Part shown: in pieces, positions 4,312-54,942 of the stretch
How the letters are laid out: each line of letters begins with the position of its first letter
Position numbering within the stretch: position 1 is the stretch's first letter
Assembly (NCBI GenBank): GCA_016210045.1
Contig: JACQUX010000021.1
Location: forward strand, 36,125-100,124
DNA from: Deltaproteobacteria bacterium
GTDB lineage: Bacteria; UBA10199; GCA-002796325; JACPFF01
Direction: 5' to 3'
Length of the DNA stretch: 64,000 nt
Program-made: the position numbers and the translations under genes
The notes under the pieces: model-generated
The model's input: only the letters and a program-made list of their open reading frames with translations
The model's database searches: none
Told to the model about the DNA's origin: nothing

Positions 4312-4461
4312 GGCCGGGAGGGCGTACCGGGGGCCGCAGGGGCTCTCGGAGCCGATTTCTCCTTGCGAAATCTAATGACAAAATCGGCGAGGGCGAGCGG
4401 CGACTCGCCTCGATGGCGAGTCGACCGCGTACCCTGCGGCCCCCGGTACGCCCTCCCGGCC
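4312..4461 (+). repeat. Structured element family 1, copy 2 (30-bp perfect arms around a 90-nt core), upstream of asnS
   Basis: 4312-4341 is the exact reverse complement of 4432-4461; core nearly identical to 27989-28078. Confidence 0.9.
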
Positions 4462-14455: not shown

Positions 14456-14483
14456 TTAAAGCTCCTTGGTGCACAACTGTTTG

Positions 14484-14568
14484 TGGTGCGCAACGCTCCT
14501 GCTCGTCGCGTTGCGGTCATCACTACCGCGGGCCACGGCTCCACTAACGTTCCGCCGCCCTTACTCCT
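14484..14568 (-). repeat. Structured element family 2, copy A (85 bp)
   Basis: Reverse complement aligns without gaps to 32324-32408 (74/85 identical by manual count) and to 27634-27718. Confidence 0.85.
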
Positions 14569-14612
14569 CCTGAATTATGAGGCGTGGCGCTAACACGCGG
14601 GGGGAGCGGAGG

Positions 14613-15512
14613 TCAAGGCATCGCTTTGAGCTTCTTCAGCTCCTCGGCAGCCTCGCGGGCGAGGTCATTTTGGTCCCCATCCGGGGTGCTGGGCGCGACT
14701 ACCCGTTCCGGGGCCGGCACGGCCTTCGGGACCGGGATGCCCGTCGTGGTTGCGCGCGGCGCCGCAGTGGACTTCGGCGCCGCGTTTGCGCGGCTTGCCA
14801 TCCATGCCGGCGACGGATCGGCAACTGATTGTGGTTTGGCATGCACTTGCCGCGCCGGCGGAATGGCCCCGGCGTCCAAATAGCGCGTGGCCGTGCCCTT
14901 ATTCGGATCTATGACCGGTTTCGTCGCGGTCGCAGCGGCACTCGGCTTGGCCGGTTTCGGCACGGTTGCAACTGTTGGTTTGGTGGCTGTGGGACTCGCG
15001 GTTGGGAGATTTTTTGCCACTGCTTTGGTGGAGACCGCCTTCGGCTCCGGAGCCAGGTCGGCATACTCGGGTTCTTCCGAACCGAGCGATGGCGACGCGG
15101 TCGGGGCCTTCGGCGTGCGGACGATAACAGGAGCCGCGATCTTCGGCGTGGCGGCCGACGGCGCCACGGCCTTACGGTTCGCGACCATAAAGCGCGGATC
15201 GCCGGCGTCCATCACGGCGAGATGATTTTCGACCTTCACCACGCCACGAGTCCGGCGCGCCAATGCTTCCGCCCGCTGCCGCTCGCCGTCATTGGCGACC
15301 CGCCCGCCGAGCGCCACGACGCCGCGATAGACATCCACATTCACACCACTCCCGTTGACCTGTTTATCCCGCGCCATTCGCCAATGCAGCGCGGTCTTGA
15401 TCTTTTCGTCGCGCCACACTTCGCCCACGCCACGCCGCATCGGCGTCGCACCGCAGCCGGCCAGCAACGCGGCCAGAATCGCGAATGAAAAGAAACGGCA
15501 TCGAGTCGTCAT
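14613..15512 (-). CDS. BON-domain lipoprotein with a Pro/Ala/Thr-rich tail
   Basis: Lipobox LLAGC; BON pattern DEKIKTAL...[16 protein letters not shown]...[18 protein letters not shown]. Confidence 0.85.
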
Positions 15513-15605
15513 AAATCCCCCTTGGGAACGCAGTGTGAAAATTTCGACGCGATTATACGGATCAACAAATGGGGTGTCAAAATTTTCGTCACCGGTTTAG
15601 AAAAA

Positions 15606-16001
15606 ATGTCACACACTGGAGACGACGTGACGATCCGAATCAAACGACTACTGTGGTGTGGCGCGGGGATTTTCTGCGCATGGCTGCTCGTGAGTCGACT
15701 GACACCGTCGCCGACCGGGATCGGGACGCACGAACAATTCGGGTTGCCTCCGTGTCCGCTACACTGGTTAACCGGTTGGCCGTGCCCGGCGTGCGGCCTC
15801 ACCACCAGTTGGTGTCATTTGAGCCACGGCGCGTGGGCGGCCGCGTTTCGCGCGCATCTGCTTGGACCGTTGGTGCCGATCGGGTTGGCAGGGTGGGCCG
15901 CTTTCAATGTCCCGTCGGCACAATGGGCCTGGGCCGGAGGTTTAAGCATCGGGCTGGCGAGCTGGTTGATCTCAATTATGCGACTTTCCGGCCTATTCTA
16001 G
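15606..16001 (+). CDS. DUF2752-like membrane protein (start uncertain)
   Basis: [29 protein letters not shown] motif. Confidence 0.75.
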
Positions 16002-16172
16002 CCCCGACCAGACTCACCAGGATGCGCTAGAATCGCGCCGCCGCCGCGCCCTCTATCCCCAACCCCTGCCTCAGAATCTTAAAAACATCAATAAAATCAA
16101 CGAATAGTTTGCTCCGTCTGGCAGGCGACATAGATAACAGACGAAAAATCAAGGGGTGCAGCGAGGCATGGA

Positions 16173-16949
16173 TTACTGGAGATTCACGACAAATTCGGCG
16201 ATCACGCGGTAACAGGCCTCGGGTTGGTCGATCATTGGCCAGTGGCCGGCGCCGGGGAACAGATGATTGACGAGCTGGAAGTCGTGGATGAATTGGCGCG
16301 TCTGCGCGGGCGTGTTGCCGTCGCCCCAGAGATACAGCTTGGGACACGCGAGCGCGGCATACGCCTCGCCACTGGTTTGTACGCCGGTGGCCTCGTAACA
16401 ACTCTGACCCCACGACAGCAGCGCGCGCGGATCGGCGAAGCGGAGGCTGGCGACGTAACGAAGCAAGGCTTCGTCGCCGTTCGCCTGCGCCGCCATCGCG
16501 GCCACATAGGTGCGGTGAAAGGCTGCGGCATCGGTCACGCCGATCGTCTGGCCGGTGCCGAACGTATCGGCACGGGTCAAATTCCCTTCGATGCTGACGA
16601 CCGCGCGCACTTGCTGCGGCCATACTACCGCCGCGCGAGTGGCGACGATGCCGCCGAGCGAATGTCCGAGCAGCACCACCGGCCGCTGTGGCGAATGGAC
16701 TGCGAGTAACCGCCCCAACACCCGCACCGAGCCGTCGATCGTCGCGGCCCCTTCCACGAATGGAGAGACGCCAAATCCGGGAAAGTCGGGGGCGAACAGG
16801 TTGCAGCGCTGCGCCAGCGGCGACCCGAAGACCTCGCGGAACGAAAGTCCCGATTCGCCGAAACCATGCAAAAACCACAAATCCAACAGCGCACCCGGAT
16901 TGGCACGCGTCCGCAACAACACCTGATCGGTCGTCGTAATCGTCGCCAT
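16173..16949 (-). CDS. Alpha/beta hydrolase
   Basis: FLHGFG, APDFPGFG, GHSLGG nucleophile elbow, GAGHWPM. Confidence 0.9.
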   Translation of the reverse strand: MATITTTDQVLLRTRANPGALLDLWFLHGFGESGLSFREVFGSPLAQRCNLFAPDFPGFGVSPFVEGAATIDGSVRVLGRLLAVHSPQRPVVLLGHSLGGIVATRAAVVWPQQVRAVVSIEGNLTRADTFGTGQTIGVTDAAAFHRTYVAAMAAQANGDEALLRYVASLRFADPRALLSWGQSCYEATGVQTSGEAYAALACPKLYLWGDGNTPAQTRQFIHDFQLVNHLFPGAGHWPMIDQPEACYRVIAEFVVNLQ

Positions 16950-17009
16950 ACCACCCTCCCGGCGCGCCGTGTAGCATAACCCGCCGCAGGGCCAACACGA
17001 TAATATCAA

Positions 17010-17037
17010 TTGACGGCAAATAAATTATACGTACACT
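17010..17037 (+). promoter_or_regulatory. Sigma70-like promoter, probably giving a leaderless brnT mRNA
   Basis: TTGACG (17010-17015), 16-nt spacer, TACACT (17032-17037), then 6 nt to ATG 17044. Confidence 0.5.
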
Positions 17038-17043
17038 GTAAAT

Positions 17044-17328
17044 ATGAGCTCGATATGTTTCGAGTGGGATGAACGGAAAAATCGAGAGAATATGCGCAAA
17101 CACCGCGTCTCATTCGAAGAGGCACGAACGGTGTTTCTCGATGAACAGGCCATCCGTTATTTTGACCCGGATCATTCCGCAGATGAAGATCGCTTCATTA
17201 TGTTGGGACTCAGTTATCAATTGCGGGTGTTGGTCGTCTGTCACTGCTATCGCACGAGCGAAACGACGATTCGGATCATTTCGGCTCGCAAGGCCGACCA
17301 ACAGGAACGCACGGCCTACAGGAGATAA
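17044..17328 (+). CDS. brnT: BrnT family toxin
   Basis: FEWDERKNREN.RKH.VSFEEA..VF.D..HS..EDRF...IRIISARKA. Confidence 0.9.
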   Translation: MSSICFEWDERKNRENMRKHRVSFEEARTVFLDEQAIRYFDPDHSADEDRFIMLGLSYQLRVLVVCHCYRTSETTIRIISARKADQQERTAYRR

Positions 17329-17332
17329 ATGT

Positions 17333-17548
17333 ATGCGCACTCATTATGATTTCTCCACGATGAAAGGCATCCGAAACCCGTATAGCAAAGATTTGAAGCA
17401 GCCGATCACGATTCGTTTGGATAAAAACACGGTTTCTTATTTCAAGACGTTGGCAACCACGCTGGGCATGTCGTATCAACATCTCATCAATCTGTATCTA
17501 CGGGATTGTGCCGTCTCCCACAAAAAGTTGGCCTTACGATGGGAATGA
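17333..17548 (+). CDS. brnA: BrnA family antitoxin
   Basis: HYDFSTMKG.RNPY...KQPITIRLD...YFK.LA...G.SYQ.LINLYLRDC. Confidence 0.85.
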   Translation: MRTHYDFSTMKGIRNPYSKDLKQPITIRLDKNTVSYFKTLATTLGMSYQHLINLYLRDCAVSHKKLALRWE

Positions 17549-17597
17549 TCATCAACACGGGGACAGTGGCTAGGAAGAGGTGACGGGTAGATCGTGA

Positions 17598-18566
17598 CTA
17601 GTGGCTGGTACGAGCGGGGGCGAAGGTTTGTTCCAAGCGCTGCTTGAAGCGATCCAGTTGCTCGACCGACAAACCACGGGAGCCCGCCTTGCTCGCCGCA
17701 GCGTCCTTCGTCTTGGCATGCGGTGCGGGGTCTGCAGGATCGATCGGAGGGGGCTTCACCGGGTCGTCCATCATATAGACCAACTGATGCTGTGCGGCCC
17801 GAATCGCTTGTTCGATCAGCGCATCGTCATGCGACACGGCAATCGCTACGCCATTCCGTTTCTGCAGGCCGCGACTCAGTTCTCGCGCTAACGCAAGGAG
17901 GTCGGCGTCGAGGATCTCCGCGCGACTGAGCACGCCATCCCGATCCGTGTCCAAACGAGTCAGGACGAGCTGTCCGAAAGTCGCGCTGCGCAACGATTTC
18001 AGGATCGCTGCGGCCTTCTGACGATGTTCACTGGGGAGCAGCGCCATCAACCGGGTCGAGAACTTGCGACTGAAGCTGTCATCGTCGACCGATGCCCCTG
18101 CCGTCATATCGTTGCCGGCATCCGCTTCGCTCAGCACTGCCGACGTCGAATTGGCCAGCGCCGGACACATGGTTTGCCGAATGATCCCCGACTCATTGAC
18201 GTAAAAAGAGCGCTCGCCACTCTCGCCGCATCGTCGTGGGGCGGCGGTGGTGATCCACTTCGAACCTTCTTCCGCGGTTGAGACGTCGAATACGTAGTCC
18301 GCTTTTTCCCCGGACCCCAGGAGATCATCGATCGACCCATCGGCGCTCAGATTCGCTAGGCTATCCCCGTATCCGCCATATTCATCCTTGTGCAGGCTCT
18401 GCGCCGTCACAATGGATCTCATGCTGCCGATCGCGGACCCTTCGTTGGCGGCGATCCGGGCCCGCAGGAGATTGGGGATGGCGATGGCGGAGATGATTGC
18501 GATCAGGGCAACCACAATCATCAGTTCGATCAGGGTGAAGCCCCGCTGGCACTCGTGACCTCTCAT
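17598..18566 (-). CDS. Type IV pilin-like protein with an EF-hand-containing C-terminal extension
   Basis: Class III signal RG|FTLIELMIVVALIAIISAIAIPNL; SGERSFYVNESGIIR; later DTDRDGVLSRAE loop. Confidence 0.85.
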   Translation of the reverse strand: MRGHECQRGFTLIELMIVVALIAIISAIAIPNLLRARIAANEGSAIGSMRSIVTAQSLHKDEYGGYGDSLANLSADGSIDDLLGSGEKADYVFDVSTAEEGSKWITTAAPRRCGESGERSFYVNESGIIRQTMCPALANSTSAVLSEADAGNDMTAGASVDDDSFSRKFSTRLMALLPSEHRQKAAAILKSLRSATFGQLVLTRLDTDRDGVLSRAEILDADLLALARELSRGLQKRNGVAIAVSHDDALIEQAIRAAQHQLVYMMDDPVKPPPIDPADPAPHAKTKDAAASKAGSRGLSVEQLDRFKQRLEQTFAPARTSH

Positions 18567-18578
18567 GGTCGTCCCCCA

Positions 18579-19340
18579 TTACTCTTTGCGATAGTGTGTC
18601 TCGTATTCGTCCAACAGCTGCTGACGTTCCGGCGCAACGACCGCCCGGAGGTCGTCAATCGCCGCTAAGGGCGTGTGCGATTCCGCACCGATATACGACT
18701 CGATCAAGGCCGACCGGACATCCTCATTGAGGCCGACGAGATCCACTCGGGCCAAGAGCTCGGGCAGATATAACGGCTCGATACGGGCCATGGCGCGCAC
18801 TGCTTGCCGCTTAAGGGCCAAGACATTCAGATAGTCTTGCGGATGCTCGAAATAGTCAGACGTGACAATCGGCAGTTGTTCGATCGTCTCTTTCAACGTC
18901 ACGACCATCTCCTCGTCCGGCAATTGGACGAGCACACTCATCGCCATCGTGCGCGCACTCCGCCACTGTTCCGCCAAACTTTCATCGTCCTGCGTGGAGG
19001 GTTCTGTCGCCAAGATAGTACGAATCTGCGCGATCACGGCCTCGCAACAGTGGTCCGAGGCCCGCTGCATCAGGGCCGCTCGCCCGGCCCGATACGCAGT
19101 GCCGTCGGCATCGTCCGTGCGTACTGCCAACAGTGCAAAAATTTCTCGGCGCAGCGGAAAGCTCGCCGCCGCGGCCTCTTCCTCCTGTCTGAGATCGGGG
19201 GGTGGCCAGCCAGAGGCATAGCCGGTCATGCGGGCCAGCGAGTGTTGCACATGCTGGAAATCGACACCCGCGCCCCGCAGCAAGACCGCCACGCCACCGA
19301 GCAGGATCAAGGCCCAAAAAGCAAAGAGCGATTTCTTCAT
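18579..19340 (-). CDS. Membrane-anchored helical hypothetical protein
   Basis: N-terminal TM (MKKSLFAFWALILLGGVAVLL) and helical body; 13 bp upstream of the pilin gene. Confidence 0.7.
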   Translation of the reverse strand: MKKSLFAFWALILLGGVAVLLRGAGVDFQHVQHSLARMTGYASGWPPPDLRQEEEAAAASFPLRREIFALLAVRTDDADGTAYRAGRAALMQRASDHCCEAVIAQIRTILATEPSTQDDESLAEQWRSARTMAMSVLVQLPDEEMVVTLKETIEQLPIVTSDYFEHPQDYLNVLALKRQAVRAMARIEPLYLPELLARVDLVGLNEDVRSALIESYIGAESHTPLAAIDDLRAVVAPERQQLLDEYETHYRKE

Positions 19341-19402
19341 GGTACGAATAGGATACCCGATCCACGGTCCGCTGCAAAGTCTGCGCGGTGAACCGACCCC
19401 GT

Positions 19403-20263
19403 TTATGGCGAGGGGATCGTGGTGAAGAGCCGCCGCACCAACCACGGCGCCACTTGACTCTCTAAGCAGGCCGCCAGCAAGAGCGTACCAAGCGCCAGCA
19501 GGAGGATCACAGTGCATGCACGCAGCACTTGGTAGAACTTCGCGTCAGACCAGCGATATTTCAGCATCGCCTTCGACAGGAACATCCCCGCCATCGCGGA
19601 GAGGATATAGGCCACGGCCTCCGCCACCAGATGCGGCATCGTGCAACAGAGCAGCTTGCTGGCCGTCATGAGTGTGGTTTCACCCGCCACTGACGCCTGA
19701 GTCGTGGTCACCCCAAAGATGGCGCCCCAGACCGACGCATTCCAGACCACGGCAAACACCGCGCCCGCGCGATAGAGGAGGGCAAAGAAGAGGAAGGTCA
19801 GCAGCGCCACGAGATTGTGCGCCAGGATGGGGCCAAAATGCGCAAAGTGCATCTGCGCGAGCTGGACCACGGCGCCCTCCAGCTGCGTGGCAAACAGACG
19901 CGCGCCCAACACCGCCGGCATCAGGAGAGCGATGGTAAAATAAACACACAACGCCCCCGAGAAGAGGACCAACAACGACAGCGTCATGTCGAGGTTCGCG
20001 TGCGCCGGATGGATCCGACGCCGCCAGATATCGTCGCCATTTTTTTCCAAGATCCAATCGAAGGCCGCCAACAGCGAAAGCGAGTGGAGAAAGACGGCCA
20101 CGATGCCCATGGCGCCGGGAAACAGCAGAGACGCCGTGGCCACGGCGAGGAGGCCATAGAGGAATGCGACCAAAAAAAGTCCACACCGTTGGCGCACGGC
20201 CGATTGCGGCTCCCGATACCGAAGGATTCCCCACGCCGACGCGGTCACCGCTTGGAGATTCAT
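19403..20263 (-). CDS. SpoIIM-like (DUF95) integral membrane protein
   Basis: Multiple TM segments; HN..A..F..WNA..G and MPHLVAEAVAYILSAMAG pattern. Confidence 0.7.
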   Translation of the reverse strand: MNLQAVTASAWGILRYREPQSAVRQRCGLFLVAFLYGLLAVATASLLFPGAMGIVAVFLHSLSLLAAFDWILEKNGDDIWRRRIHPAHANLDMTLSLLVLFSGALCVYFTIALLMPAVLGARLFATQLEGAVVQLAQMHFAHFGPILAHNLVALLTFLFFALLYRAGAVFAVVWNASVWGAIFGVTTTQASVAGETTLMTASKLLCCTMPHLVAEAVAYILSAMAGMFLSKAMLKYRWSDAKFYQVLRACTVILLLALGTLLLAACLESQVAPWLVRRLFTTIPSP

Positions 20264-20374
20264 TCGCGTTCGCCCCACCAGAGGTCGCTGCATCCCATCG
20301 TGTCATTCTTACTGCAATGGCGCGACCTCATCCATGGCAAATGTCAGGCATCGCAAAAACAAGCTATGCACGGT

Positions 20375-21334
20375 TTATTCGCTCCGACTCGTCACGCTGC
20401 CTGCCGCGTCCGCTTCCCCAACGTCTTGAAAGTCCCGCAGCCAACGATGCGTAATGTGGCCGAAGGCATCGAGGCGATCGGCGAAGCCGGCACGCACGCC
20501 GTCCACGCCGATCGCGGCGCCCGCACCCCACGCGAGGACGTTGCGGGCCACGGTGGGGAGACCGGGATATCCATACAGCACACGGGCGGCTTGGGCGATC
20601 CGGACTTGCACGGGCAACGGGACGTCATGTGGATCGCCGAAATGCGGGATCGGCACGTCGTCTTGGGTGCGAATCCGCGCTAAACGAATCCCGACAACTA
20701 ATAGTTCGCAGAGCACCGACTCCGCAGGCTCCGGCACAGGCACGGCATGGTTCCCGTGCAGTCCGCGCCAGGCTTGTTGAAACTCGTCGCTTGCCACAAT
20801 GGCGCGGCGAGTCAGTGGTTCCACTTGTCCTAGTCCCAGCCGATTCTGCGGGGGATTCAACATCCACTTCGTTTCAATCGAAACAATCGCCGCGATAAAC
20901 GCCGGCGGCAGATCGACTTCCGGACGCTCTGCGACTTGTACCAGCCACGCAGCCGTCGCCGGTTTGTGCGCCAGGAAATGCTGGACCACGTTGCCGCGAT
21001 GCCGCGTGACATCGATCGCGGCGCCGAGTTCCGCAGCCGCACGCGCGTCGTGGGCTCGGCGTGCGGCCATGCGCGGAGAGAGGGCCGCGTAACACGCAGC
21101 GGTCGCCTGCCAGCGAATTCGTTGCATCGCTGGGTCGTAGTACAAACAGGCGGGGACGGTCGCGGCTCCCGTGTCGGTCATTACCATGGTTTGTCGCGGA
21201 TCGGCATTGACGAGCGCGACCGGGCCATCGGCTTCCAGAATACAGCGCCATTCTCGATCGTGCGTGCCGACGAACGGGACACAGCTCCCGGGGAAATCCA
21301 CTGTGGCTTGTGTCTTCAGTCGTCCGTCACCCAT
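20375..21334 (-). CDS. Hypothetical protein with a possible lytic transglycosylase (SLT-like) motif
   Basis: PPAFIAAIVSIET...RLGLGQV resembles SLT motifs I and II (AII..ES / GLMQ). Confidence 0.5.
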   Translation of the reverse strand: MGDGRLKTQATVDFPGSCVPFVGTHDREWRCILEADGPVALVNADPRQTMVMTDTGAATVPACLYYDPAMQRIRWQATAACYAALSPRMAARRAHDARAAAELGAAIDVTRHRGNVVQHFLAHKPATAAWLVQVAERPEVDLPPAFIAAIVSIETKWMLNPPQNRLGLGQVEPLTRRAIVASDEFQQAWRGLHGNHAVPVPEPAESVLCELLVVGIRLARIRTQDDVPIPHFGDPHDVPLPVQVRIAQAARVLYGYPGLPTVARNVLAWGAGAAIGVDGVRAGFADRLDAFGHITHRWLRDFQDVGEADAAGSVTSRSE

Positions 21335-21483
21335 CGCCGGCTCCGGGCATGGCCTTCATGCGCAGTCAAACTCGCTTCCACTACGGTCGTTATCGGCTCA
21401 GATGAAAAAAAGTTGCGCCGCAAAATAACACGCAACTTCTTCGACACCAGGCCGATATACAGAACCCAACGAGGAGGATGCTC

Positions 21484-25357: not shown

Positions 25358-25394
25358 ATAGAAGCATCACTGGTGGCTAGTGATTGGCAATAAC

Positions 25395-25465
25395 CATCGC
25401 AGGGGGACAGGTACCGTCAAATGCCTGCCAAATGGGCATCGCACGGTACCTGTCCCCCTGCGATG
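25395..25465. repeat. 23-bp perfect inverted repeat; terminator-like or REP-like
   Basis: CATCGCAGGGGGACAGGTACCGT (25395-25417) / ACGGTACCTGTCCCCCTGCGATG (25443-25465); inner ATGCC/GGCAT stem. Confidence 0.8.
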
Positions 25466-25562
25466 CATATGCGCATGAGTCGGCGGACTAGTACGGCGCA
25501 ACTTCCTCCGCGAACTGCCGATACATATGTAGGGGTATCGGGGTTGGGGGGAGTCGCGTACT

Positions 25563-27065
25563 ATGGCCAAATCCATTTCCAATAGACCAGGAGTCGGGGG
25601 ACAGCTGCCGTCCAGGGTCCGGCAACAGCCGATCATACGGCGCTCGGCGTACCCGGTCGTTCCCGCAGCACTCCACGCACGCGCCGTGGGACCTGGGCGG
25701 TCATTGGTCCCCGCAGCACACGGGGAACCGCGCCGCGGCTGGCGCTCCCTGTTCGGCCCTGTCGGGCGCTTGGTCGCGCGCCTCTGGGGCGGCGGCAAGC
25801 CGCCACCGATCGATCCGGTCCAGCTCCTCATGCGCAGCATTACAATGATGGATCAACGCGATCCCGACCGTCCATTCGTGCAACTCGCGTTGGCCGACGA
25901 CACGATGGCCGCACTCGCCAGCGCGCGCCCGGCCTTCAGCCTGACGTTTCAACGGGCGGAGGGCGTCCGCGTGCCGTTCCAAGTGACTACCAGCGGAACT
26001 GACGGATTTGTTGTCGCGCTCCATGGCCAGAATGCGCTCTTTTCCCGCACCGGCACCGTGGCGCTCGATTATCGAGACGGCGCATGGACGCTGGTGAACA
26101 GCGGCGACGGCGAACTGACGCTGGAAGGCAACGCGATGGAGAACGCATCGGTAACAACGCTCGCGTCCAAGGCGTCTCATCCCCTGTCACCGCTCGGTGG
26201 CACCGTGACCGTCCGGATGGGCGGTTATACATTGCTTCGCTTCACGTATCCGCGGGCGGAGGCCGATGACCAGTTCGAACCAAGAACTTTCTCGATCGGC
26301 ATCGATGGCGTCGAGTCCGCCCGCCAAGCCCGCCTCGCGGCGCGCGCCGCACCCCACGAACTATCGCCCGACCCGGCACACGGCATCGTCGCCGGCCTGT
26401 TGACTGCGGCCGGAGATGATCCGCCAGCCGCCCGAAGACACGAAATCTCGCTCGCAGAACCCGCAGAACTGGCAGACGACTTTGGCGTCGCCATTGCCGA
26501 CTTGCCCACGATTCCGGACCGGATCCTCGCGCTGCGCCGGGAGACATTTCGGCTTGAGGCCGAGGCGGCTCTCCATCGACTTCATTACAGTCGTTACGGC
26601 TTCAGTAGGCAAATGACCTCCATCCACCGTCTTCTCCCGCTACTCACGCACTGGGCGCGCCGCGACCAGGACTTCTCGCTATTGGAACTCGTCTTGACCC
26701 AACAGCGCGACCACGCCAGATACGGCACCGTCGATGAAGATTTCTTCCCTGATTGGCTGGCCCGCTTGTTACAAGCCAGTCGTGATCGGGCCACACAACG
26801 TTGGGATGAAGCGGGGATCAAGATCGCCGCGTCCGGCATGACGTATGCGGACTTCCGTTGGACGGACGCGATCCCGCCTCGATTGGCTCCGTACACTGCG
26901 GCAGAACAAGCACGGATCCTCGCACATGTGGCCCAGCGCGAATGGCGCGACCAGGAGAATACCCGAGCCGGCGCGCTCACTGCGATGCTCCTTTACGCCA
27001 GCGGCGAGCGTAGCCGCGCCTCGGCCATCGCGATCCGCACGCTGGCGCACGTGCGGCGGGAGTGA
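25563..27065 (+). CDS. Hypothetical protein with a degenerate FHA-like segment
   Basis: 500-aa ORF with GGGGAG RBS; FSRTGTVAL..DGAWTLVN..G.LTLEG....TVRMGGY.LLRF resembles the FHA beta-sandwich pattern. Confidence 0.6.
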   Translation: MAKSISNRPGVGGQLPSRVRQQPIIRRSAYPVVPAALHARAVGPGRSLVPAAHGEPRRGWRSLFGPVGRLVARLWGGGKPPPIDPVQLLMRSITMMDQRDPDRPFVQLALADDTMAALASARPAFSLTFQRAEGVRVPFQVTTSGTDGFVVALHGQNALFSRTGTVALDYRDGAWTLVNSGDGELTLEGNAMENASVTTLASKASHPLSPLGGTVTVRMGGYTLLRFTYPRAEADDQFEPRTFSIGIDGVESARQARLAARAAPHELSPDPAHGIVAGLLTAAGDDPPAARRHEISLAEPAELADDFGVAIADLPTIPDRILALRRETFRLEAEAALHRLHYSRYGFSRQMTSIHRLLPLLTHWARRDQDFSLLELVLTQQRDHARYGTVDEDFFPDWLARLLQASRDRATQRWDEAGIKIAASGMTYADFRWTDAIPPRLAPYTAAEQARILAHVAQREWRDQENTRAGALTAMLLYASGERSRASAIAIRTLAHVRRE

Positions 27066-27076
27066 CGGGGAAAAGC

Positions 27077-27171
27077 GGTGGCTGGTGACTGGGGGACAGC
27101 CCGCACGACACACTTTGTTCCCAATCCCCAGCCACCAGTCACGAGTCACCAGCCACCAGTCACCAGTCACG
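27077..27171. repeat. Heptamer AG(C/T)CAC(C/G) tandem repeats forming a terminator-like hairpin
   Basis: Six units at 27130-27171; two inverted units at 27077-27090. Confidence 0.8.
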
Positions 27172-27276
27172 GCTTTCCCCAACCACCTTTCTATTGACTT
27201 GCCGCGCCCTTTCAACGAAGCAAACGCCCTGGGAGGGGAGTGCTTAAGTGCTTAAGCGCTTGAGTACGGACATCAC

Positions 27277-27609
27277 ATGGATAGTGAATTGACCGACACA
27301 CCGACAAGTCACGGCAGTGCGCCGACACCGCCGACGGCGGCGGGCATCAGTGGGCGCGCGATGGCGGCGTTGGTGCTGGGACTCCTCGCGCTGATTCCGT
27401 GCTGCCTGTTCTTCACCGGCATTCCGGCGATTATCGTCGGACAACTCGAACTCGCGGCCATCGACAACGGCGCCGCGCCGACCGCCGGACGGGCCATTGC
27501 GAAGACCGGCCTCGTCTTCGGCGTCATCGGCTCGGCACTCGGCCTGCTGCTCGTGCTCGGCTGGTTCTTCGCCGTGGGCTTAGGCTTCATGGCAAAAATG
27601 GTGCACTGA
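27277..27609 (+). CDS. DUF4190-like small membrane protein
   Basis: AMAALVLGLLA..C..TGIPAIIVG...L..I......G...AKTGL..G.IG. Confidence 0.8.
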   Translation: MDSELTDTPTSHGSAPTPPTAAGISGRAMAALVLGLLALIPCCLFFTGIPAIIVGQLELAAIDNGAAPTAGRAIAKTGLVFGVIGSALGLLLVLGWFFAVGLGFMAKMVH

Positions 27610-27633
27610 ATGCCGCTGTCCTCTCCATTTGGG

Positions 27634-27718
27634 GAGGCTAAGGGCGCAGCGGCCTATGCCGCTGCATGGCCCGCAGCAGCGGTTATAGCAATGCGACGAG
27701 CAGGAGCATTGCTCACCA
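27634..27718 (+). repeat. Structured element family 2, copy C (85 bp)
   Basis: Colinear with the other two copies; perfect stems CAGCGGC/GCCGCTG and GCAATGC/GCATTGC. Confidence 0.8.
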
Positions 27719-27742
27719 TTGCAGTTGGGTGAGGGGGAGTGT

Positions 27743-28153
27743 TAGGGCGTGTTTGTAAAATTGATACGGCAATGCAGGATTTTCCATCACGCAGTGGCGC
27801 GCGTTCGATACGAGGGCCGGGCGGAGGGGGCAGACAGGCCACCGAACATCGAAATCGATTTTGCAAACACGCCCTACCGAACGTAGCCGATCTGATGACA
27901 AGAGAACAACTCACGAAAACATTCCACTGTTACAAGCAATCTGGCCCTCATACTACCGGCGACGGTGCGGGTGGGGTATCTCCCAGGGGCTCTCGGAGCC
28001 GATTTCTCCATGCGTCTGTGAATGACGAAATCGGCGAGGGTGAGCGGCGCTGCGCCTCGATGGCGCAGCGACCGCGTACCCTGGGAGATACCCCACCCGC
28101 ACCGTCGCCCCCGGACGCAATACACACCGAAATTATTTTGCAAACACACCCTA
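27743..28153. mobile_element. MITE-like region with three copies of a ~20-bp terminal-inverted-repeat-like sequence
   Basis: TAGGGCGTGTTTGTAAAATTGAT at 27743 (+); inverted copies ATCGATTTTGCAAACACGCCCTA (27854-27876) and ATTTTGCAAACACACCCTA (28135-28153); no transposase in the window. Confidence 0.5.
27958..28109 (+). repeat. Structured element family 1, copy 3 (31-bp perfect arms around a 90-nt core), upstream of rsmD
   Basis: 27958-27988 is the exact reverse complement of 28079-28109; core shares GGGCTCTCGGAGCCGATTTCTCC and AAATCGGCGAGGG.GAGCGGCG...CGACCGCGTACCCT with copy 2. Confidence 0.9.
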
Positions 28154-28163
28154 GGAGATTGCC

Positions 28164-28727
28164 ATGCGCGTAATCGCCGGGAGTGCCAAAGGCCGGACGT
28201 TGCTGGGACCGAAACGCGACGATCCGATCCGTCCGGTCGAAGATCGGGTCAAGGAATCGCTCTTCAACATCTTGTGGGACGTGACCGGACTCCGCATCCT
28301 GGATGCATTTGCCGGCACCGGCGCGATCGGGATCGAGGGCTTAAGCCGCGGCGCCGCGCACTGCACGTTCATCGACCAATCCCCGCGCGCCATCGCGCTG
28401 ATCACCGCCAATGTGGAACGCTGCGGACTGCTCGAACGCGCCACCATTGTCCGCGCCTCAGTCGACCGCGCGCTGGAACGCCTCGCGAAAGGGACCGTGC
28501 CATTCGATCTGCTCTTCATCGACCCGCCGTACACCCAAGACCTCGTTGCTCCGACACTCGCCCAGCTGGCCGCAACGCCGCTGCTCGCCCCCGCCGGACG
28601 CATCTTGATCGAGCACGAGCACAAACTCGTACTCGCACTCCCGCCGACCTTGCAGCTGACCGACCAACGCACATACGGGCAAACTGTGGTGAGCTTCGTG
28701 CGGCGTATGACAATCAATCCCGGCTAA
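28164..28727 (+). CDS. rsmD: 16S rRNA (guanine966-N2) methyltransferase
   Basis: MRVIAGSAKGR.L..IRP..DRVKESLFNIL, LDAFAGTGAIGIEGLSRGA, FDLLFIDPPY. Confidence 0.95.
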   Translation: MRVIAGSAKGRTLLGPKRDDPIRPVEDRVKESLFNILWDVTGLRILDAFAGTGAIGIEGLSRGAAHCTFIDQSPRAIALITANVERCGLLERATIVRASVDRALERLAKGTVPFDLLFIDPPYTQDLVAPTLAQLAATPLLAPAGRILIEHEHKLVLALPPTLQLTDQRTYGQTVVSFVRRMTINPG

Positions 28728-29005
28728 CGATAGGCCTCTTTGCGATGGCGGACGGCGGCAATCACGACCGTCTTGGCGACTTCGTCGATGAGGTAGAACA
28801 ATCGAAAATGTCCGATCCGATAGCGATACGTCGGTGGATCGTAATCACGGAGCTTTTTAATCTGCGGACCAAAGTGGAGTTCAGCCCGCAGCTGCGGGTA
28901 AATCTGGCTGCGGAGCCGGTCACGAATCAGGCGCGCCTCGAACGGCGAGGTTGTTTTTTTCAACGAGCGCTCAAATGGCTCCGTTTCCGCGATCTGATAC
29001 GCCAT
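28724..29005 (-). CDS. relE: RelE/ParE family toxin
   Basis: IKKLRDY.PPTYRYRIGHFRLFY.IDE...V.I..VRHRKEAYR. Confidence 0.85.
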   Translation of the reverse strand: MAYQIAETEPFERSLKKTTSPFEARLIRDRLRSQIYPQLRAELHFGPQIKKLRDYDPPTYRYRIGHFRLFYLIDEVAKTVVIAAVRHRKEAYR

Positions 29006-29006
29006 A

Positions 29007-29249
29007 TCATTCTACGATGGTGTAACGACCCTTTTGATAGTCTGCCCAACTCCGTTTGATCTCTTTTTGGAGCGTCTCATCCACATGTAATGTCGCCATT
29101 TCCAATGCGTCGACGAATTGGGATTCTTCCATATGGCGGGTGAGAATCGTTTCGATCAGATTCGGCATACTGCGATTATCCGCGTCGGCCATCCGCTGCA
29201 GTCGCCGCCATAGGTCGTCTTTGAGATTGATCGTCGTCCGCGCCATCAT
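29007..29249 (-). CDS. Ribbon-helix-helix (CopG/RelB-like) antitoxin
   Basis: RTTINLKDDLWRRLQRMA...NRSM.NLIETIL; 1 bp upstream of the toxin; GGAGG RBS. Confidence 0.8.
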   Translation of the reverse strand: MMARTTINLKDDLWRRLQRMADADNRSMPNLIETILTRHMEESQFVDALEMATLHVDETLQKEIKRSWADYQKGRYTIVE

Positions 29250-29262
29250 CGCCCTCCTGATG

Positions 29263-29299
29263 CAATATGCATCAATTATGCATCAATTGATGCATATTG
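29263..29299. promoter_or_regulatory. Nested palindromic operator between two divergent TA operons
   Basis: 15-bp inverted repeat CAATATGCATCAATT (29263-29277) / AATTGATGCATATTG (29285-29299); 20-bp perfect palindrome 29277-29296; direct repeat ATGCATCAATT x2. Confidence 0.7.
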
Positions 29300-29361
29300 T
29301 CAATTTTCACACTCAACTCAGTTGACATTGCATATTTATATAAATTTGATATACAATACGT

Positions 29362-29634
29362 ATGTACACGTGGGATGCCGCAAAGAACCGCGCAAACCAG
29401 GCCAAACATGGCATTAGCTTCGAGGAAGCACGCGATCACATTTTTGAAGGTCCCAACCTGTTGGCCGCCGGCATTGCGTACAACAAGGACGGGCCGCGCC
29501 ACGCAGTGATCGGCAAGTGCCGAGGTAAATACTACGTCGGCATCTTTACCGTGACCCGGCAAGGTATTCGGATCATTTCAGTGCGGAGGGCACGCCATGA
29601 AGAAGAGCGGCAAGCGAAAGCCAAGGGACTTTGA
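29362..29634 (+). CDS. brnT: BrnT family toxin (second copy)
   Basis: YTWDAAKNRAN.AKHGISFEEA...R.AVIG...T.R..IRIISVRRARHEE. Confidence 0.85.
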   Translation: MYTWDAAKNRANQAKHGISFEEARDHIFEGPNLLAAGIAYNKDGPRHAVIGKCRGKYYVGIFTVTRQGIRIISVRRARHEEERQAKAKGL

Positions 29635-29854
29635 CGAACGATTCGACGCCGGTGAAGTAGCGATCAATTTTTCGACCGCCACACCCACGGAGGGTCTGAG
29701 CAAGACCATGAAATTCCCCCCGATGGATCTCCCCATGTGGCTGGCGGCAGAAATCGAACAACTCGCCAGATTTCAAGCGAACTCGAAGGCTTCCGTTATT
29801 CGGCAACTGCTGGTCGAAGCGGTAGAGGCCAGGCGGGTTCGCGTGGCGCCCTAA
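29597..29854 (+). CDS. CopG-type antitoxin (BrnA-associated)
   Basis: DFDERFDAGE...MDLP.WL..EIEQLA......KASVIRQLL; overlaps the brnT 3' end. Confidence 0.75.
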   Translation: MKKSGKRKPRDFDERFDAGEVAINFSTATPTEGLSKTMKFPPMDLPMWLAAEIEQLARFQANSKASVIRQLLVEAVEARRVRVAP

Positions 29855-30540
29855 AAATGCACGCCTAAGTTTAACCCAGCGGAGAATTGCAGATCGACTT
29901 TGCCGTCCGTGATCGCGACGCCGCTCACTTCTTTTTTGTCGGGAAAAATAATCGCCTCTTCCACGCCGAGGTCGAGCATCAGTCCCGGCTTCCCAGCGAC
30001 GAGCAGCAGTCCGCCGCCGAACGCCACGCCGGGACCGATCGCGCCGACCTTCGACTCGTTTTCCGTGCCCCCTTTCACGCCGAGCACGAACAGCGCCCCG
30101 CCGCCTTTCACATATGGCAACAACGCGGCCTTGTCGCCCAACCAGCTTTCGTGCGGGACGTAGACGTAGCGCGCGTTCAGATTCGCCAGCCCCGCCCATT
30201 CGGTCCGCTCCTCGCCGAAAAAGTCGGCCTTGGCATGAGAGAGCCGCACCATCAGTTCCGCGGCCAAGTTGTCGGTGACCGTATACCCAACCGTGAACGC
30301 ATATCCGAGTTGGTAATCGCTCCCGAATTTTTCGCCGGTGAGAATATTGCGGTCCCGATCCAGATTCATCAGCGAGAGTCCGAACAACAGATAGGCCCCC
30401 TCCCCCCACCCCGCATCGGCCTCCGTCGCCCGCGGCGTCAGCCCGGTCGCACTGAGCGGCCGATACCGCGGCTCGCGCGCACCGGCGGTACAGTGCAAGA
30501 GCATCACGGCGAAAAAAACAACATAACAAGAGCAACGCAT
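29851..30540 (-). CDS. Outer-membrane beta-barrel protein (OmpA-membrane/OmpW-like)
   Basis: Signal peptide, alternating amphipathic strands (LLPYVKGGGAL, GVAFGGG), C-terminal Phe (GLNLGVHF). Confidence 0.8.
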   Translation of the reverse strand: MRCSCYVVFFAVMLLHCTAGAREPRYRPLSATGLTPRATEADAGWGEGAYLLFGLSLMNLDRDRNILTGEKFGSDYQLGYAFTVGYTVTDNLAAELMVRLSHAKADFFGEERTEWAGLANLNARYVYVPHESWLGDKAALLPYVKGGGALFVLGVKGGTENESKVGAIGPGVAFGGGLLLVAGKPGLMLDLGVEEAIIFPDKKEVSGVAITDGKVDLQFSAGLNLGVHF

Positions 30541-30628
30541 GCGATAGGGAGTAACACAATTCGTCATCAAACGTGAAGTGGCTGTTCCAACTTGACCCCT
30601 GGTACCGAACGCAGTACGACGCCGCCCG

Positions 30629-31108
30629 ATGCATACGGCGATCTGTCCTGGGAGTTTCGATCCCCCGACCAACGGGCATCTGAATATTATCGAACGCGGA
30701 CTCAAGTTGTTCGATCGGTTGGTCGTCGCGATTGCGGTCAATACGAGTAAAAATCCGCTCTTTTCCGCCGACGAACGCGTGGCGATGCTGCGCGAAATCT
30801 TCCAAGCGGAACCGCGTATTGAAGTCGACGCCTTCGAAGGGCTGTTAGTGGATTACGCGCGGCGGCGCCACATCACGACGATCTTGCGCGGGATTCGCAC
30901 CATGTCGGACTACGAATACGAATTCCAAATGGCGCTCGTGAATAAGGCGATGTCGCCGCAAATGGAAACCGTGTTCATGATGACCGAAGGCCGATATTCC
31001 CACTTAAGCTCGACCATCATTAAAGATGTGATCCGCTTCGGCGGCAATGCCACGAAAATGATGCACGGCATCGTCGAGCAACGCTTGCGCAATAAACTCA
31101 ACCCATAG
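30629..31108 (+). CDS. coaD: Phosphopantetheine adenylyltransferase
   Basis: AICPGSFDPPTNGHLNII, LLVDYA, RGIRTMSDYEYE, SSTIIK. Confidence 0.97.
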   Translation: MHTAICPGSFDPPTNGHLNIIERGLKLFDRLVVAIAVNTSKNPLFSADERVAMLREIFQAEPRIEVDAFEGLLVDYARRRHITTILRGIRTMSDYEYEFQMALVNKAMSPQMETVFMMTEGRYSHLSSTIIKDVIRFGGNATKMMHGIVEQRLRNKLNP

Positions 31109-31116
31109 AGGTTTGC

Positions 31117-32310
31117 ATGCCATTCGCCCAACGCACAGCTGCCCTGGCCATTTCACCGACGCTCGCCACGGCCGCCAAGGCCAAGGCGCTGGCCGCGCAG
31201 GGCATCTCGGTGATCGACTTCAGTATGGGGGAACCCGACTTCGACACCCCGGCCCATATTAAGGCCGCGTGCGCGCAGGCGCTGACCAACGGCATGACGA
31301 AATACGGTCCGGCGGCGGGATTGCCGGCCTTGCGCACGGCGATTGCGGCGGCGCTGCAGCGGGACTGCGATCTCCGTTACCAAGCGAACGAAATCCTCGT
31401 CACATGTGGCGCCAAAGAGGCCCTCTTCGCCGCGTTGCAAGTGCTCGTCGACTCGGGCGACGAAGTCATTGTGCCGGCGCCGTATTGGGTCTCGTATCCG
31501 GAACAAGTGAAACTCTGCGGCGGGGTTCCGGTCTTCGTGGAGACCCAAACGCGGCCGGATCTCACGCTGACCGCGACGCAACTGGAGCAGGCCTGCACGT
31601 CACGCACGAAAGTCGTCATGCTGAACAGTCCCAGTAATCCGACCGGCGTCGTCTACTCCCGCGCCGCGTTGGCCGCAATCGGCCGTGTTTGCGCGGCGCG
31701 CGGGTTGTGGGTGATCAGCGACGAAATGTACGACCGCCTGGTCTATCCGCCGGCGACCTTCAGCAGTTTTGTGACTGCGGCGCCGGAATGTCGCGAGCAA
31801 ACGATTCTGGTGAACGGCCTCTCCAAGACCTATGCCATGACCGGCTGGCGGATCGGCTACGCAGCGGGGCCGGCGGCCGCGATCGACAAGATGACCGCGT
31901 GGCACAGTCAAGTCGTGACCCATCCGACCAGTTTCGCGCAACACGGGGCCGTCGCAGCGCTGTCCGGCGACCAGGCCTGCGTCGCGACGATGCACCACGC
32001 CTTCCAGCAACGACGCGACGCCACGATGCGCGGCTTACGCGCCATTCCCGGCCTCCAGACGCCGGAACCCGCCGGGGCATTCTTCGCGTTCCCCAACGTG
32101 ACCCATTTCTTGGGACGGACTGCCGGCGAGCGCACCATCACGACCTCGCTCGAACTGGCCGATTATCTCCTTGACCAGGCTCACGTCGCCGTGGTTGCAG
32201 GGGAGGGCTTCGGCGCGCCCGGCTTTATTCGGCTGTCGTACGCGTTGGAAATGCCCGCGCTGGAAGAGGGATTGAAACGATTGGCGACCGCACTCGCGCA
32301 ACTGCAATAG
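31117..32310 (+). CDS. Class I/II PLP-dependent (aspartate-type) aminotransferase
   Basis: MGEPDFDTP, YWVSY, LNSPSNPTG, SDEMYD, NGLSKTYAMTGWRIGY, GAFFAF. Confidence 0.93.
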   Translation: MPFAQRTAALAISPTLATAAKAKALAAQGISVIDFSMGEPDFDTPAHIKAACAQALTNGMTKYGPAAGLPALRTAIAAALQRDCDLRYQANEILVTCGAKEALFAALQVLVDSGDEVIVPAPYWVSYPEQVKLCGGVPVFVETQTRPDLTLTATQLEQACTSRTKVVMLNSPSNPTGVVYSRAALAAIGRVCAARGLWVISDEMYDRLVYPPATFSSFVTAAPECREQTILVNGLSKTYAMTGWRIGYAAGPAAAIDKMTAWHSQVVTHPTSFAQHGAVAALSGDQACVATMHHAFQQRRDATMRGLRAIPGLQTPEPAGAFFAFPNVTHFLGRTAGERTITTSLELADYLLDQAHVAVVAGEGFGAPGFIRLSYALEMPALEEGLKRLATALAQLQ

Positions 32311-32323
32311 CACCATCACACAA

Positions 32324-32408
32324 AGGAGTAAGGGCGGCGGAGCGGTAGCGAAGCCATGGCCCGCGGTAGAAAAGATCGAAACGCGACGAGGAGGAGCGTT
32401 GCGCACCA
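32324..32408 (+). repeat. Structured element family 2, copy B (85 bp), directly before the lacD-like RBS
   Basis: 74/85 identical to the reverse complement of 14484-14568. Confidence 0.85.
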
Positions 32409-32421
32409 AAAGGAGAGGCAT

Positions 32422-40449: not shown

Positions 40450-40676
40450 ACCAACCATCCTTACATGACGCTCGCTGGCTAATTTAAACTTGCCGCAGGA
40501 TCACCCACTCTGCGCGTTTTGCAGAGAAAAACACCCGCGCATTCCATTGTAGGACTCCTCCTACAGACTGCACGCATTCGATAAAGCACGGTTTTTTCGA
40601 CACTCCCCATGGCACTCGACTTGCTCAACATCCAGGCTGGAGTGGTGTGGACCCTTACATGGGGCTGGGGGGGACT

Positions 40677-54720: not shown

Positions 54721-54942
54721 TTTCCGCGCCCGCATAATGAACACTCGCTGTCGCCCATCAGGTCAATAAGCACTCGATCGCTGCACCACGTGGTAAGCAG
54801 ACACTCCCTGTTTCGTCTGTCAGACAATTCCTACACGCGGAGGTATTGAATCGGGCATGGTATTTTGCCCGCCGCGGGTGGCCGTTCGCTTGCATTGGCA
54901 ACTGGGGTGAGTCTCAGCCCGCATCGGGCCAGGGGGGGCACT

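Follow-up and report, generated by a model that had tools for sequence, protein, structure and literature searches.

A two-hairpin intergenic element beside Shine-Dalgarno sequences, probably a dispersed repeat, in an uncultured bacterium labelled Deltaproteobacteria

The stretch of DNA analysed here (the window, 64,000 nucleotides) holds three copies of a short intergenic element, each of which interrupts a tightly packed pair of genes on the same strand: a BON-domain gene and a 248-aa gene (copy 1), a DUF4190 gene and an RsmD-like methyltransferase gene (copy 2), and an aminotransferase gene and a DeoC-LacD aldolase gene (copy 3). The flanking genes are unrelated and share no common functional theme. 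The initial annotation had described three colinear 85-nt copies, and these were recovered where it had placed them (Table 1), aligned without gaps. The core is ~85 nt long, or ~105 nt with the 3' extension of copies 1 and 2; copy 3 is without this extension of ~17 nt. As had been claimed, all copies lie sense to their co-directional flanking genes, an arrangement with a chance probability of 0.25, and two of them end near the next start, with copy 1 stopping 28 nt and copy 3 13 nt before the ATG. The end of copy 2 is 445 nt from the next confirmed gene. This copy shares its 554-nt spacer with at least two other small repeat elements, and the spacer, packed in this way, is therefore an insertion hot spot.

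Table 1. Positions and features of the three copies in the window
Feature	Coordinates	Strand	Details
Copy 1, core	14484..14568	minus	TAAGGGCG at 14563-14556; CACCA ending at 14484; 108.9 bits (covariance model)
Copy 1, hairpin P1	14530..14560	minus	Outer GGGC/GCCC, inner 8 bp, GUUA loop; GGA/GGA 3x3 internal loop and 3-nt bulge GUG
Copy 1, hairpin P2	14489..14515	minus	8 bp CGCAACGC/GCGUUGCG, 11-nt loop GACGAGCAGGA
Copy 1, left Shine-Dalgarno-like repeat	14564..14571	minus	AGGAGGAG, immediately 5' of TAAGGGCG
Copy 1, 3' extension and right repeat	14462..14483	minus	CAAACAGTTGTGC, then ACCAAGGAG
Copy 2, core	27634..27718	plus	P1 27642-27672 (perfect stem), P2 27687-27713; 106.3 bits
Copy 2, left Shine-Dalgarno-like repeat	27631..27637	plus	GGGGAGG, 1 nt before TAAGGGCG
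Copy 2, 3' extension and right repeat	27719..27739	plus	TTGCAGTTGGGTGAG, then GGGGGAG
Spacer of 554 nt	27610..28163	plus	Between DUF4190 gene and RsmD-like gene; contains copy 2
Copy 3, core	32324..32408	plus	P1 32332-32362 (GGA/GAA internal loop), P2 32377-32403; 102.5 bits
Copy 3, left repeat	32320..32328	plus	ACAAAGGAG
Copy 3, right repeat	32405..32415	plus	ACCAAAAGGAG

Across its 97 columns, the three-copy alignment has a mean column identity of 82%. Pairwise, similarity is 86% between copies 1 and 3 (88 nt) and 81% between copies 1 and 2 (3' 52 nt). A 46-nt degenerate pattern has three sites in the window, exactly the three copies, and none in 100 shuffles. Likewise, a covariance model run on the window with filters off retrieved the three copies only, at 103–109 bits, the next best hit scoring 13.7 bits. 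A fourth occurrence of TAAGGGCG, at 18666, was set aside as a chance match. Together with one remnant in relatives (see below), these three copies form the evidence base for the element. Over the part of the copy 3 region used for comparison, short Logan contigs from the same organism are 100% identical.

Each copy folds into two hairpins, P1 on the 5' side and P2 on the 3' side. Paired cells make up 87.7% in the three-copy fold, against 25–42% when the partners are slid, and four pairs are changed on both sides, a number reached by 5 of 500 shuffles. An independent RNAalifold prediction gave the same two hairpins and, across the three copies, five compensated pairs. The covariation first noted in the 3' stem (AAC/GTT versus AAT/ATT) is real, and a second compensated pair in this stem, C-G to A-U at columns 62–88, accounts for the G/T in GC(G/T)CACCA. 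This eighth P2 pair explains the G/T variation better than a third hairpin does; the candidate for the latter, formed by CACCA and the 3' extension of copies 1 and 2, did no better than shuffles. The 5' hairpin also agrees with its first description: copy 2 has a perfect one, and in copies 1 and 3 it is interrupted by a 3x3 internal loop of purines. One more compensated pair distinguishes the latter two. The linker between the hairpins is free to vary, while the hairpins are kept via compensated changes. The hairpins are subterminal, the start of P1 being 4 nt from the 5' end and the end of P2 being 5 nt from the 3' end of the core, and no terminal inverted repeats are seen when the 5' end TAAGGGCGG is compared with the reverse complements of the candidate 3' ends, GCGCAACGC, GCACAACTG and TGGTGCGC. 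A repeat search at the three loci listed inverted pairs only between different copies on opposite strands.

The nearest relative, sample SRR22388245 (L123 and L135), has 88–89% protein identity, and all three orthologous sites are empty there, the gene pairs being 57, 2 and 27 nt apart for copies 1, 2 and 3, respectively. In L123, the 2-nt spacer stands against the 554 nt that hold copy 2. The empty sites read ..gcgaACCAGGAGGtcgtgtATG for copy 1 (L135) and TAG..gaACCAGGAGGcatgtATG for copy 3 (L123), and they have GAACCAGGAGG in common. The string ACCA(A)GGAG just 5' of a start codon occurs nowhere else in the window, and in 22.8 kb of L123 and L135 it precedes a start codon at these two sites only. 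Six other lineages (L124, L129, L130, L131, L132 and L134) are empty as well. At the aldolase site of L125–L128, however, where the host relative has ~70% identity, the sequence CCACAC-AGGAG-CGTTACGCACCA-AGGAG-acatcATG contains a remnant of 17 nt, made of the 3' tail and a duplicated AGGAG; its alignment score is 34, versus a shuffle maximum of 22. L137, which belongs to the same clade as the remnant carriers (86% identical aldolase), has an uninterrupted CCACACTAAGGAGGcgactATG. Its GAGCGTTATCGACCA was considered as a second remnant and was not significant versus shuffles, L137 being better read as an empty site. Occupation of the aldolase site in two lineages ~70% apart implies either a strong target preference or an ancient presence followed by several precise losses.

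All three copies are bracketed by Shine-Dalgarno-like direct repeats of 5–9 nt, and both flanks resemble the empty sites. GGAG lies 0–2 nt upstream of the element in every copy, and a second GGAG lies 3' of each, being the Shine-Dalgarno of the downstream gene in copies 1 and 3. For copy 1, the left repeat AGGAGGAG falls on the Shine-Dalgarno ACCAGGAGG when aligned to the empty site of L135, the right repeat ACCAAGGAG is a working Shine-Dalgarno 6 nt 5' of the ATG at 14455, and GTTGTGCACCA in the region of the 3' extension repeats GTTGCGCACCA from the 3' end of the core. The extensions of copies 1 and 2 have CAGTTG in common. For copy 3, the left repeat ACAAAGGAG matches the Shine-Dalgarno context of the aldolase gene in relatives (CACAC.AAGGAG; L137, L125, L130), and the right repeat ACCAAAAGGAG is a working Shine-Dalgarno 6 nt 5' of the aldolase ATG at 32422. 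Read as target duplications, these repeats are imperfect, with 2 of 8 positions mismatched at copy 1 and indels at copy 3; a 3' Shine-Dalgarno borne by the element accounts for the direct repeats equally well.

No copy of the element was found in ~150 kb of relatives' DNA, in JGI metagenomes (strict three-block pattern; 3'-half pattern), in IMG/VR, or by plasmid and phage BLAST. In a genome collection, the pattern TGGCCCGC-N10-24-GACGAGNAGGAGC gave at least 120 matches, and those listed were chance matches in G+C-rich coding DNA. Rfam 15 returned 0 matches at gathering score; at E ≤ 10 there was none for copy 3, and copy 2 had three noise-level matches (E 1.5–5.6), far below gathering. A tRNA origin was dismissed, ARAGORN finding neither tRNA nor tmRNA in the window. 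As for a mobilising enzyme, no transposase, including the Y1 type, was found among the window ORFs scanned, and the one Y1-type gene seen, weakly RAYT-like and in a 74% relative, scored 40 bits against the RAYT cut-off of 80 bits.

We consider that the three copies probably represent a lineage-specific, non-coding, non-autonomous dispersed repeat of the REP, MITE or PATE kind. The kind of element is ordinary; only the family is new. Of the two options put forward in the initial annotation, the REP-like one is thus favoured, by the unrelated neighbours, the empty orthologous sites and the Shine-Dalgarno-like direct repeats, whereas a conserved cis-regulatory motif is disfavoured by the lack of locus conservation, of a gene theme and of an Rfam match.

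It is unlikely, in our judgement, that the element is instead under selection as a cis-regulatory leader or an intercistronic RNA module, possibly spread by duplication and now kept for its function. The five compensated changes that preserve both hairpins and the sense orientation of all three copies speak for such a module, and both would be compatible with selection on the RNA itself as well. An example would be a CsrA/RsmA-type site, in which one CsrA dimer could bridge the AGGA within the 11-nt P2 loop, found in all copies, and the GGAG Shine-Dalgarno 15–30 nt downstream, found in copies 1 and 3. These two copies have six GGA motifs each, and by sequence only they resemble mRNA-leader sites that pair the GGA of a hairpin loop with another at the Shine-Dalgarno, some 10–60 nt further downstream. 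On CsrA binding, which the initial annotation had raised as speculative, the evidence tips neither way: copy 2 has essentially one GGA and a remote next gene; AGGAG is the plain Shine-Dalgarno consensus too, and sequence alone cannot tell the two apart. The window contains no csrA. Moreover, CsrA/RsmA sites are gene-specific and conserved with the gene, whereas the present copies are dispersed, flanked by genes with no common function, without Rfam match, and missing from the nearest relative at each of the three orthologous sites, as well as from the six other lineages.

A bolder reading, to which we give little credence, is of a mobile element with site-specific homing to strong ACCAGGAGG-type Shine-Dalgarno sequences, by a mechanism as yet undescribed for bacterial small repeats, which would thereby place before genes a structured module that offers decoy sites for ribosomes or CsrA.

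It is very improbable that the element encodes a short upstream peptide, MAR..NAT(S/R)RS(V/I)AH.., read from the conserved (A/G)TG of C(A/G)TGGCCCGC and acting as a leader or through translational coupling with the gene that follows. All three copies keep this frame open: it runs for 26 codons in copy 1, to a TAA that abuts the next ATG, for 30 codons in copy 2, and in frame into the aldolase in copy 3. Two of the four stem substitutions are synonymous. Yet other frames are also open, as expected at 61% G+C, a Shine-Dalgarno is not consistently placed before the start, being absent from copies 2 and 3 and spaced by 2 nt in copy 1, the five linker codons are unrelated among the copies (GSDDR, SSGYS, GRKDR), and the stems explain the substitutions pair by pair. 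A chimeric six-frame query against 5.8 billion proteins, designed to pick up annotated ORFs that traverse further copies, gave nothing at E ≤ 10, a weak test in which low-complexity words probably swamped candidates. Paralogous small-RNA genes, Qrr- or RsmX/Y/Z-like and each with its own transcription, would suit structured units of ~85–105 nt that occur several times in one genome and are GGA-rich in copies 1 and 3, but are scarcely credible given that no sigma-70-like promoter or intrinsic terminator was found within or beside the copies, that these are wedged between co-directional genes adjacent in relatives, and that they have no Rfam match.

Returning to a non-autonomous dispersed repeat, we envisage that the element would insert at or into Shine-Dalgarno sequences, and would either duplicate ~5–9 bp of the target (ACCAGGAG-like) or carry its own 3' Shine-Dalgarno; either route would leave the downstream gene translatable. 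Slippage between the AGGAG direct repeats might later delete the element partly or wholly, and the 17-nt remnant in L125 would have arisen in this way. The hairpins would most likely be recognised on single-stranded DNA by a trans-encoded enzyme, comparable to RAYT or to an IS200/IS605-type tyrosine transposase. Once inserted, the element would be transcribed within the operon, and any effect there would be only secondary: like REP, BIME and ERIC elements, it could form a stem-loop block between cistrons and in this way uncouple translation or change the stability of the mRNA.

Several known systems are similar in part. First, REP, BIME and REPIN sequences are likewise short, G+C-rich, non-coding hairpin repeats in the intergenic spacers of operons (here with two hairpins per unit and three intergenic copies), variably present among relatives and devoid of transposon-type terminal inverted repeats; they are co-transcribed with the flanking genes, as the present element presumably is. 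REP/BIME elements and REPINs are mobilised by RAYT tyrosine transposases in Enterobacteria and Pseudomonas, and REP/BIME are known to influence, as secondary effects, the stability of mRNA and the differential expression of genes in one operon. A REP, however, is one hairpin of ~20–40 nt with a GTAG-type tetranucleotide, usually in inverted pairs (REPINs) and mostly after stop codons, whereas the present element is asymmetric, unites two hairpins with conserved single-stranded blocks and abuts Shine-Dalgarno sequences, its copies being single and well separated, with no inverted partner detected nearby by the covariance model with filters off. REP/REPIN-RAYT systems comprise tens to hundreds of copies per genome and a RAYT gene flanked by repeats; no RAYT is seen in the window. 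Second, bacterial MITEs (Correia elements of Neisseria, ERIC/IRU, RUP, BOX, Nezha), some of which alter the expression of downstream genes, are similarly small (~100 nt), non-coding, non-autonomous, strongly folded, multicopy and variably present, and lie between genes with short direct repeats on either side; they are co-transcribed, as the present element would be. Their defining feature, terminal inverted repeats that match those of a parent IS, is missing from the present element, and its apparent duplicated target is a Shine-Dalgarno motif rather than TA or another usual target. Third, PATEs, which are non-autonomous IS200/IS605 derivatives, likewise lack terminal inverted repeats and have hairpins close to both ends; their insertion is strand-specific and lies 3' of a fixed sequence of 4–5 nt, for which GGAG directly 5' of the element would be the counterpart. 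In contrast to the copies described here, each with its second GGAG 3', IS200/IS605 elements make no target duplication, and their orientation follows replication, whereas here it follows the genes, with opposite orientations 13 kb apart. We know of no TnpA for this element.

The chief use of these findings is practical: annotation should list the sequences as a family of dispersed repeats and not as a riboswitch or regulatory-RNA candidate. If the Shine-Dalgarno preference holds genome-wide, this would be a small repeat that persists in a compact genome by regenerating a ribosome-binding site where it lands, and the occupied sites would provide a natural set of operons with translational coupling broken by a structured insert. 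Should site-specific homing to Shine-Dalgarno sequences prove true, it would be a selfish repeat rewiring translation across an operon-dense genome. In the host lineage, an uncultured clade with the NCBI label Deltaproteobacteria, small structured repeats of several kinds seem to abound, and for this reason the lineage may merit a repeat census.

The three copies of the ~85-nt element align over 97 columns with zero gaps and a mean column identity of 82%. A degenerate 46-nt pattern matches these three copies only in the window and nothing in 100 shuffles. Similarly, a covariance model made from the three copies and run with filters off scores them at 103–109 bits, the best other match in the 64-kb window (G+C content 61%) reaching 13.7 bits. 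The initial annotation's account of three colinear, gap-free copies therefore holds. Copies 1 and 2 have in common a further 3' extension of ~15 nt (CAGTTG). Within copy 1, GTTG(C/T)GCACCA occurs twice; copy 3 seems to have arisen when the DNA between two such repeats was deleted.

Features of the window, with junctions of the 85-nt element (a slash in the left junction marks the element start) and the corresponding spacers
Feature	Position (strand)	Neighbours or content	Left junction	Right junction	Spacer, nearest relative vs window
Copy 1	14484-14568 (-)	BON-domain gene; conserved 248-aa gene	AGGAGGAG/TAAGGGCG	ACCAAGGAG-6nt-ATG	57 nt (..cattttgcgaACCAGGAGGtcgtgtATG) vs 157 nt
Copy 2	27634-27718 (+)	DUF4190 gene, then RsmD-like methyltransferase	GGGGAGG-C/TAAGGGCG	GGGGGAG	2 nt vs 554 nt
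Copy 3	32324-32408 (+)	Aminotransferase; DeoC/LacD (tagatose-bisphosphate-type) aldolase	AAAGGAG/TAAGGGCG	ACCAAAAGGAG-6nt-ATG	27 nt, stop to start (TAGttaaccgtcatgaACCAGGAGGcatgtATG) vs 111 nt
Second repeat family	567-715, 4312-4461, 27958-28109	~90-nt core with two hairpins, enclosed by 30-31-nt arms
19-nt repeat TAGGGCGTGTTTGTAAAAT	27743-27761 and 27858-27876 (inverted pair), 28135-28153	In the 554-nt spacer
TonB ORF	358-1050	TonB C-terminal-domain protein
Hairpin	25390-25470	36-nt arms, 86% complementary, 9-nt loop
Toxin-antitoxin pair	28724-29249 (-)	ParE toxin, ribbon-helix-helix antitoxin
Giant ORF	40647-54428	4593 aa
Giant ORF	54865-60474	1869 aa

Homologues of the aldolase come from uncultured lineages, the few with a source name being mostly MAGs labelled "Deltaproteobacteria bacterium" by NCBI; the closest is 89% identical and all others are at most 74% identical. 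The nearest relative (sample SRR22388245, loci L123 and L135) keeps synteny around the sites of copies 1–3, and the sites are empty. The element is also absent before the aldolase in six more lineages (L124, L129, L130, L131, L132 and L134), and the BON/252-aa spacer of L124 is only 11 nt long. The covariance model found zero copies in ~150 kb of relatives' DNA (the fetched loci), and no match came from two scans of metagenomes, a scan of viral sequences, or BLAST against plasmids and phages. Pattern matches in a genome collection were rejected as copies, as the pattern fits common coding sequence. The copies are thus lineage-specific insertions, or else have been lost repeatedly and precisely. 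The initial annotation had suggested either a cis-acting RNA motif or a REP-like element. Since the orthologous sites are empty in the nearest relative, the copies are not conserved regulatory parts of the flanking genes, and the former suggestion is not supported; the latter is the better half of that interpretation.

The junctions lie at Shine-Dalgarno sequences: in all three copies the element starts 0–2 nt 3' of a GGAG, and a second GGAG comes after it. Judged by sequence, the flanks on both sides resemble empty sites. In copy 3, the left flank (CACACAAAGGAG) agrees with the Shine-Dalgarno context of the aldolase in L137, L125 and L130, and the right flank (AGGAGaggcatATG) agrees with the Shine-Dalgarno sequence, spacer and start of L123; the flanks of copy 1, TCAGGAGG on the left and ACCAAGGAG on the right, are both similar to ACCAGGAGG of L135. 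In the nearest relative, the empty sites corresponding to copies 1 and 3 have GAACCAGGAGG in common. Start-proximal ACCA(A)GGAG has no other site in the 64-kb window, and in 22.8 kb of the nearest relative it precedes a start codon at those two empty sites only. Two accounts would fit the junctions equally well: duplication of 5–9 bp of target, the target being a strong Shine-Dalgarno sequence, or insertion just 3' of the Shine-Dalgarno sequence by an element bearing its own 3' CACCA-AGGAG. If the insertion reading is true, further copies are expected to have GGAG or ACCAGGAG on both sides. All three copies are sense to their neighbours, which are on the same strand; with n = 3, this could reflect selection on the RNA or simply the strand specificity of the target, since a GGAG is by definition in sense orientation.

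The spacer of copy 2 also contains a hairpin element of another family (the 27958 copy) and the three copies in the window of a 19-nt repeat (consensus TAGGGCGTGTTTG(T/C)AAAAT), of which no copy was found in any fetched locus of relatives. The inverted pair, 96 nt apart, constitutes a MITE-like unit of ~134 nt immediately after copy 2, and the third copy immediately precedes the Shine-Dalgarno sequence of the RsmD-like gene. Small repeats have thus piled up in this spacer, as the insertion reading of the 85-nt element would lead one to expect.

A more distant relative (L125–L128, GCA_040960175.1, aldolase 70% identical) has CCACAC-AGGAG-CGTTACGCACCA-AGGAG-acatcATG upstream of the aldolase. This remnant scores 34 against the 3' tail of copy 3 (shuffle maximum 22) and is exactly the residue that a deletion from the left AGGAG to the AGGAG of the loop of the 3' hairpin (P2) would leave. 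L137, whose aldolase is 86% identical to that of L125, reads CCACACTAAGGAGGcgactATG, uninterrupted by an insert. The remnant implies that the family exists, or existed, beyond the window's species. Small direct repeats apparently erode the family, and the aldolase Shine-Dalgarno sequence either was hit twice, or carried the element from early on and lost it on several occasions.

Single-sequence folds, a hand-drawn structure and an independent RNAalifold run concur on two hairpins per copy. The 5' hairpin (P1) has an inner stem of 8 bp, closed by GGGC/GCCC, and a bulge of 3 nt ((A/G)UG); the inner stem is uninterrupted in copy 2 and has a purine 3x3 internal loop in copies 1 and 3. P2 has 8 bp and an 11-nt loop, GACGAG(C/G)AGGA, whose AGGA, likened initially to CsrA/RsmA sites, is a speculative candidate for such a site. 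Standard pairs occupy 87.7% of pair cells across the three copies, against 25–42% with partners slid. Four or five pairs are altered on both sides, as many being attained by 5 of 500 shuffles. These include the change from AAC/GTT to AAT/ATT in the 3' stem, read initially as covariation and indeed one compensated pair, and a second pair whose 3' partner is the G/T of GC(G/T)CACCA. Thermodynamic stability is modest by z-score (-1.2 to -3.0), and with three sequences the pairing statistics are suggestive, not proof, of hairpin maintenance. RNA and single-stranded-DNA hairpins are inseparable by the pairing data because no G-U pairs occur.

The 85-nt element is neither a known RNA nor a small-RNA gene. 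The Rfam comparison proposed at the outset, made against Rfam 15, matched no known family, with zero matches at gathering score and, at E<=10, noise-level matches for copy 2 and none for copy 3. No promoter-like or terminator-like sites were found within or beside any of the three copies, and according to ARAGORN the window contains neither a tRNA nor a tmRNA. A short peptide is probably not encoded either: an ORF from the conserved (A/G)TG stays open in all three copies, but its Shine-Dalgarno sequence is inconsistent among them, its linker codons are unrelated from copy to copy, and further reading frames are open too.

The second repeat family seems more unusual than the 85-nt element. The 4312 and 27958 copies have cores that are ~90% alike, that of the 567 copy being ~60% alike, and differences in the inner hairpin are perfectly compensated. 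The arms are 100% complementary inside each copy and differ in sequence between copies, suggesting that each insertion involves copying one arm from the other. The predicted folding energy of the 27958 copy is -126 kcal/mol (z = -12.6); Rfam returned generic miRNA-hairpin noise only, and in the nearest relative the second-family site has no insert. The 567 copy lies inside the TonB ORF, whose Pfam domain spans residues 157–226 only; either the element was inserted in a linker region, or translation really starts 3' of the element. The hairpin immediately after a 1215-aa ORF may act as a terminator or belong to yet another kind of repeat. The toxin-antitoxin pair occupies a ~600-nt segment where the L123 spacer is ~50 nt. 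The giant ORFs consist of dozens of Asp-rich repeats of ~105–108 nt; the shorter matches the thrombospondin type 3 repeat 16 times and has a C-terminal T9SS-associated galactose-binding-like domain; more repeat-bearing ORFs or fragments follow as far as the window end.

The 85-nt repeats are thus scattered copies whose junctions are flanked by Shine-Dalgarno sequences and whose orthologous sites are empty; their hairpins are kept, and deletion between direct repeats erodes them. Whichever ends are chosen, the element has no terminal inverted repeats, and a hairpin lies near each end; this favours mobilization in trans by an enzyme that would read the hairpins on single-stranded DNA. No transposase was found among the window ORFs scanned. 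In the 74% relative (L124), a 199-aa Y1-transposase-family gene (2243-2842) adjoins the locus orthologous to that of copy 1; it matches the REP-associated tyrosine transposase model weakly (40 bits, cut-off 80), and no flanking hairpins were detected around it. This weak RAYT-like gene, the sole pointer to such an enzyme, may be a hint. Once inserted, the element would be co-transcribed with the operon, and as secondary effects it may uncouple translation, block exonucleases with its stem-loops, and offer GGA or Shine-Dalgarno motifs as decoys. The 85-nt repeats form a new family, but the kind of element is familiar; the single feature worth follow-up is that they apparently prefer Shine-Dalgarno sites.
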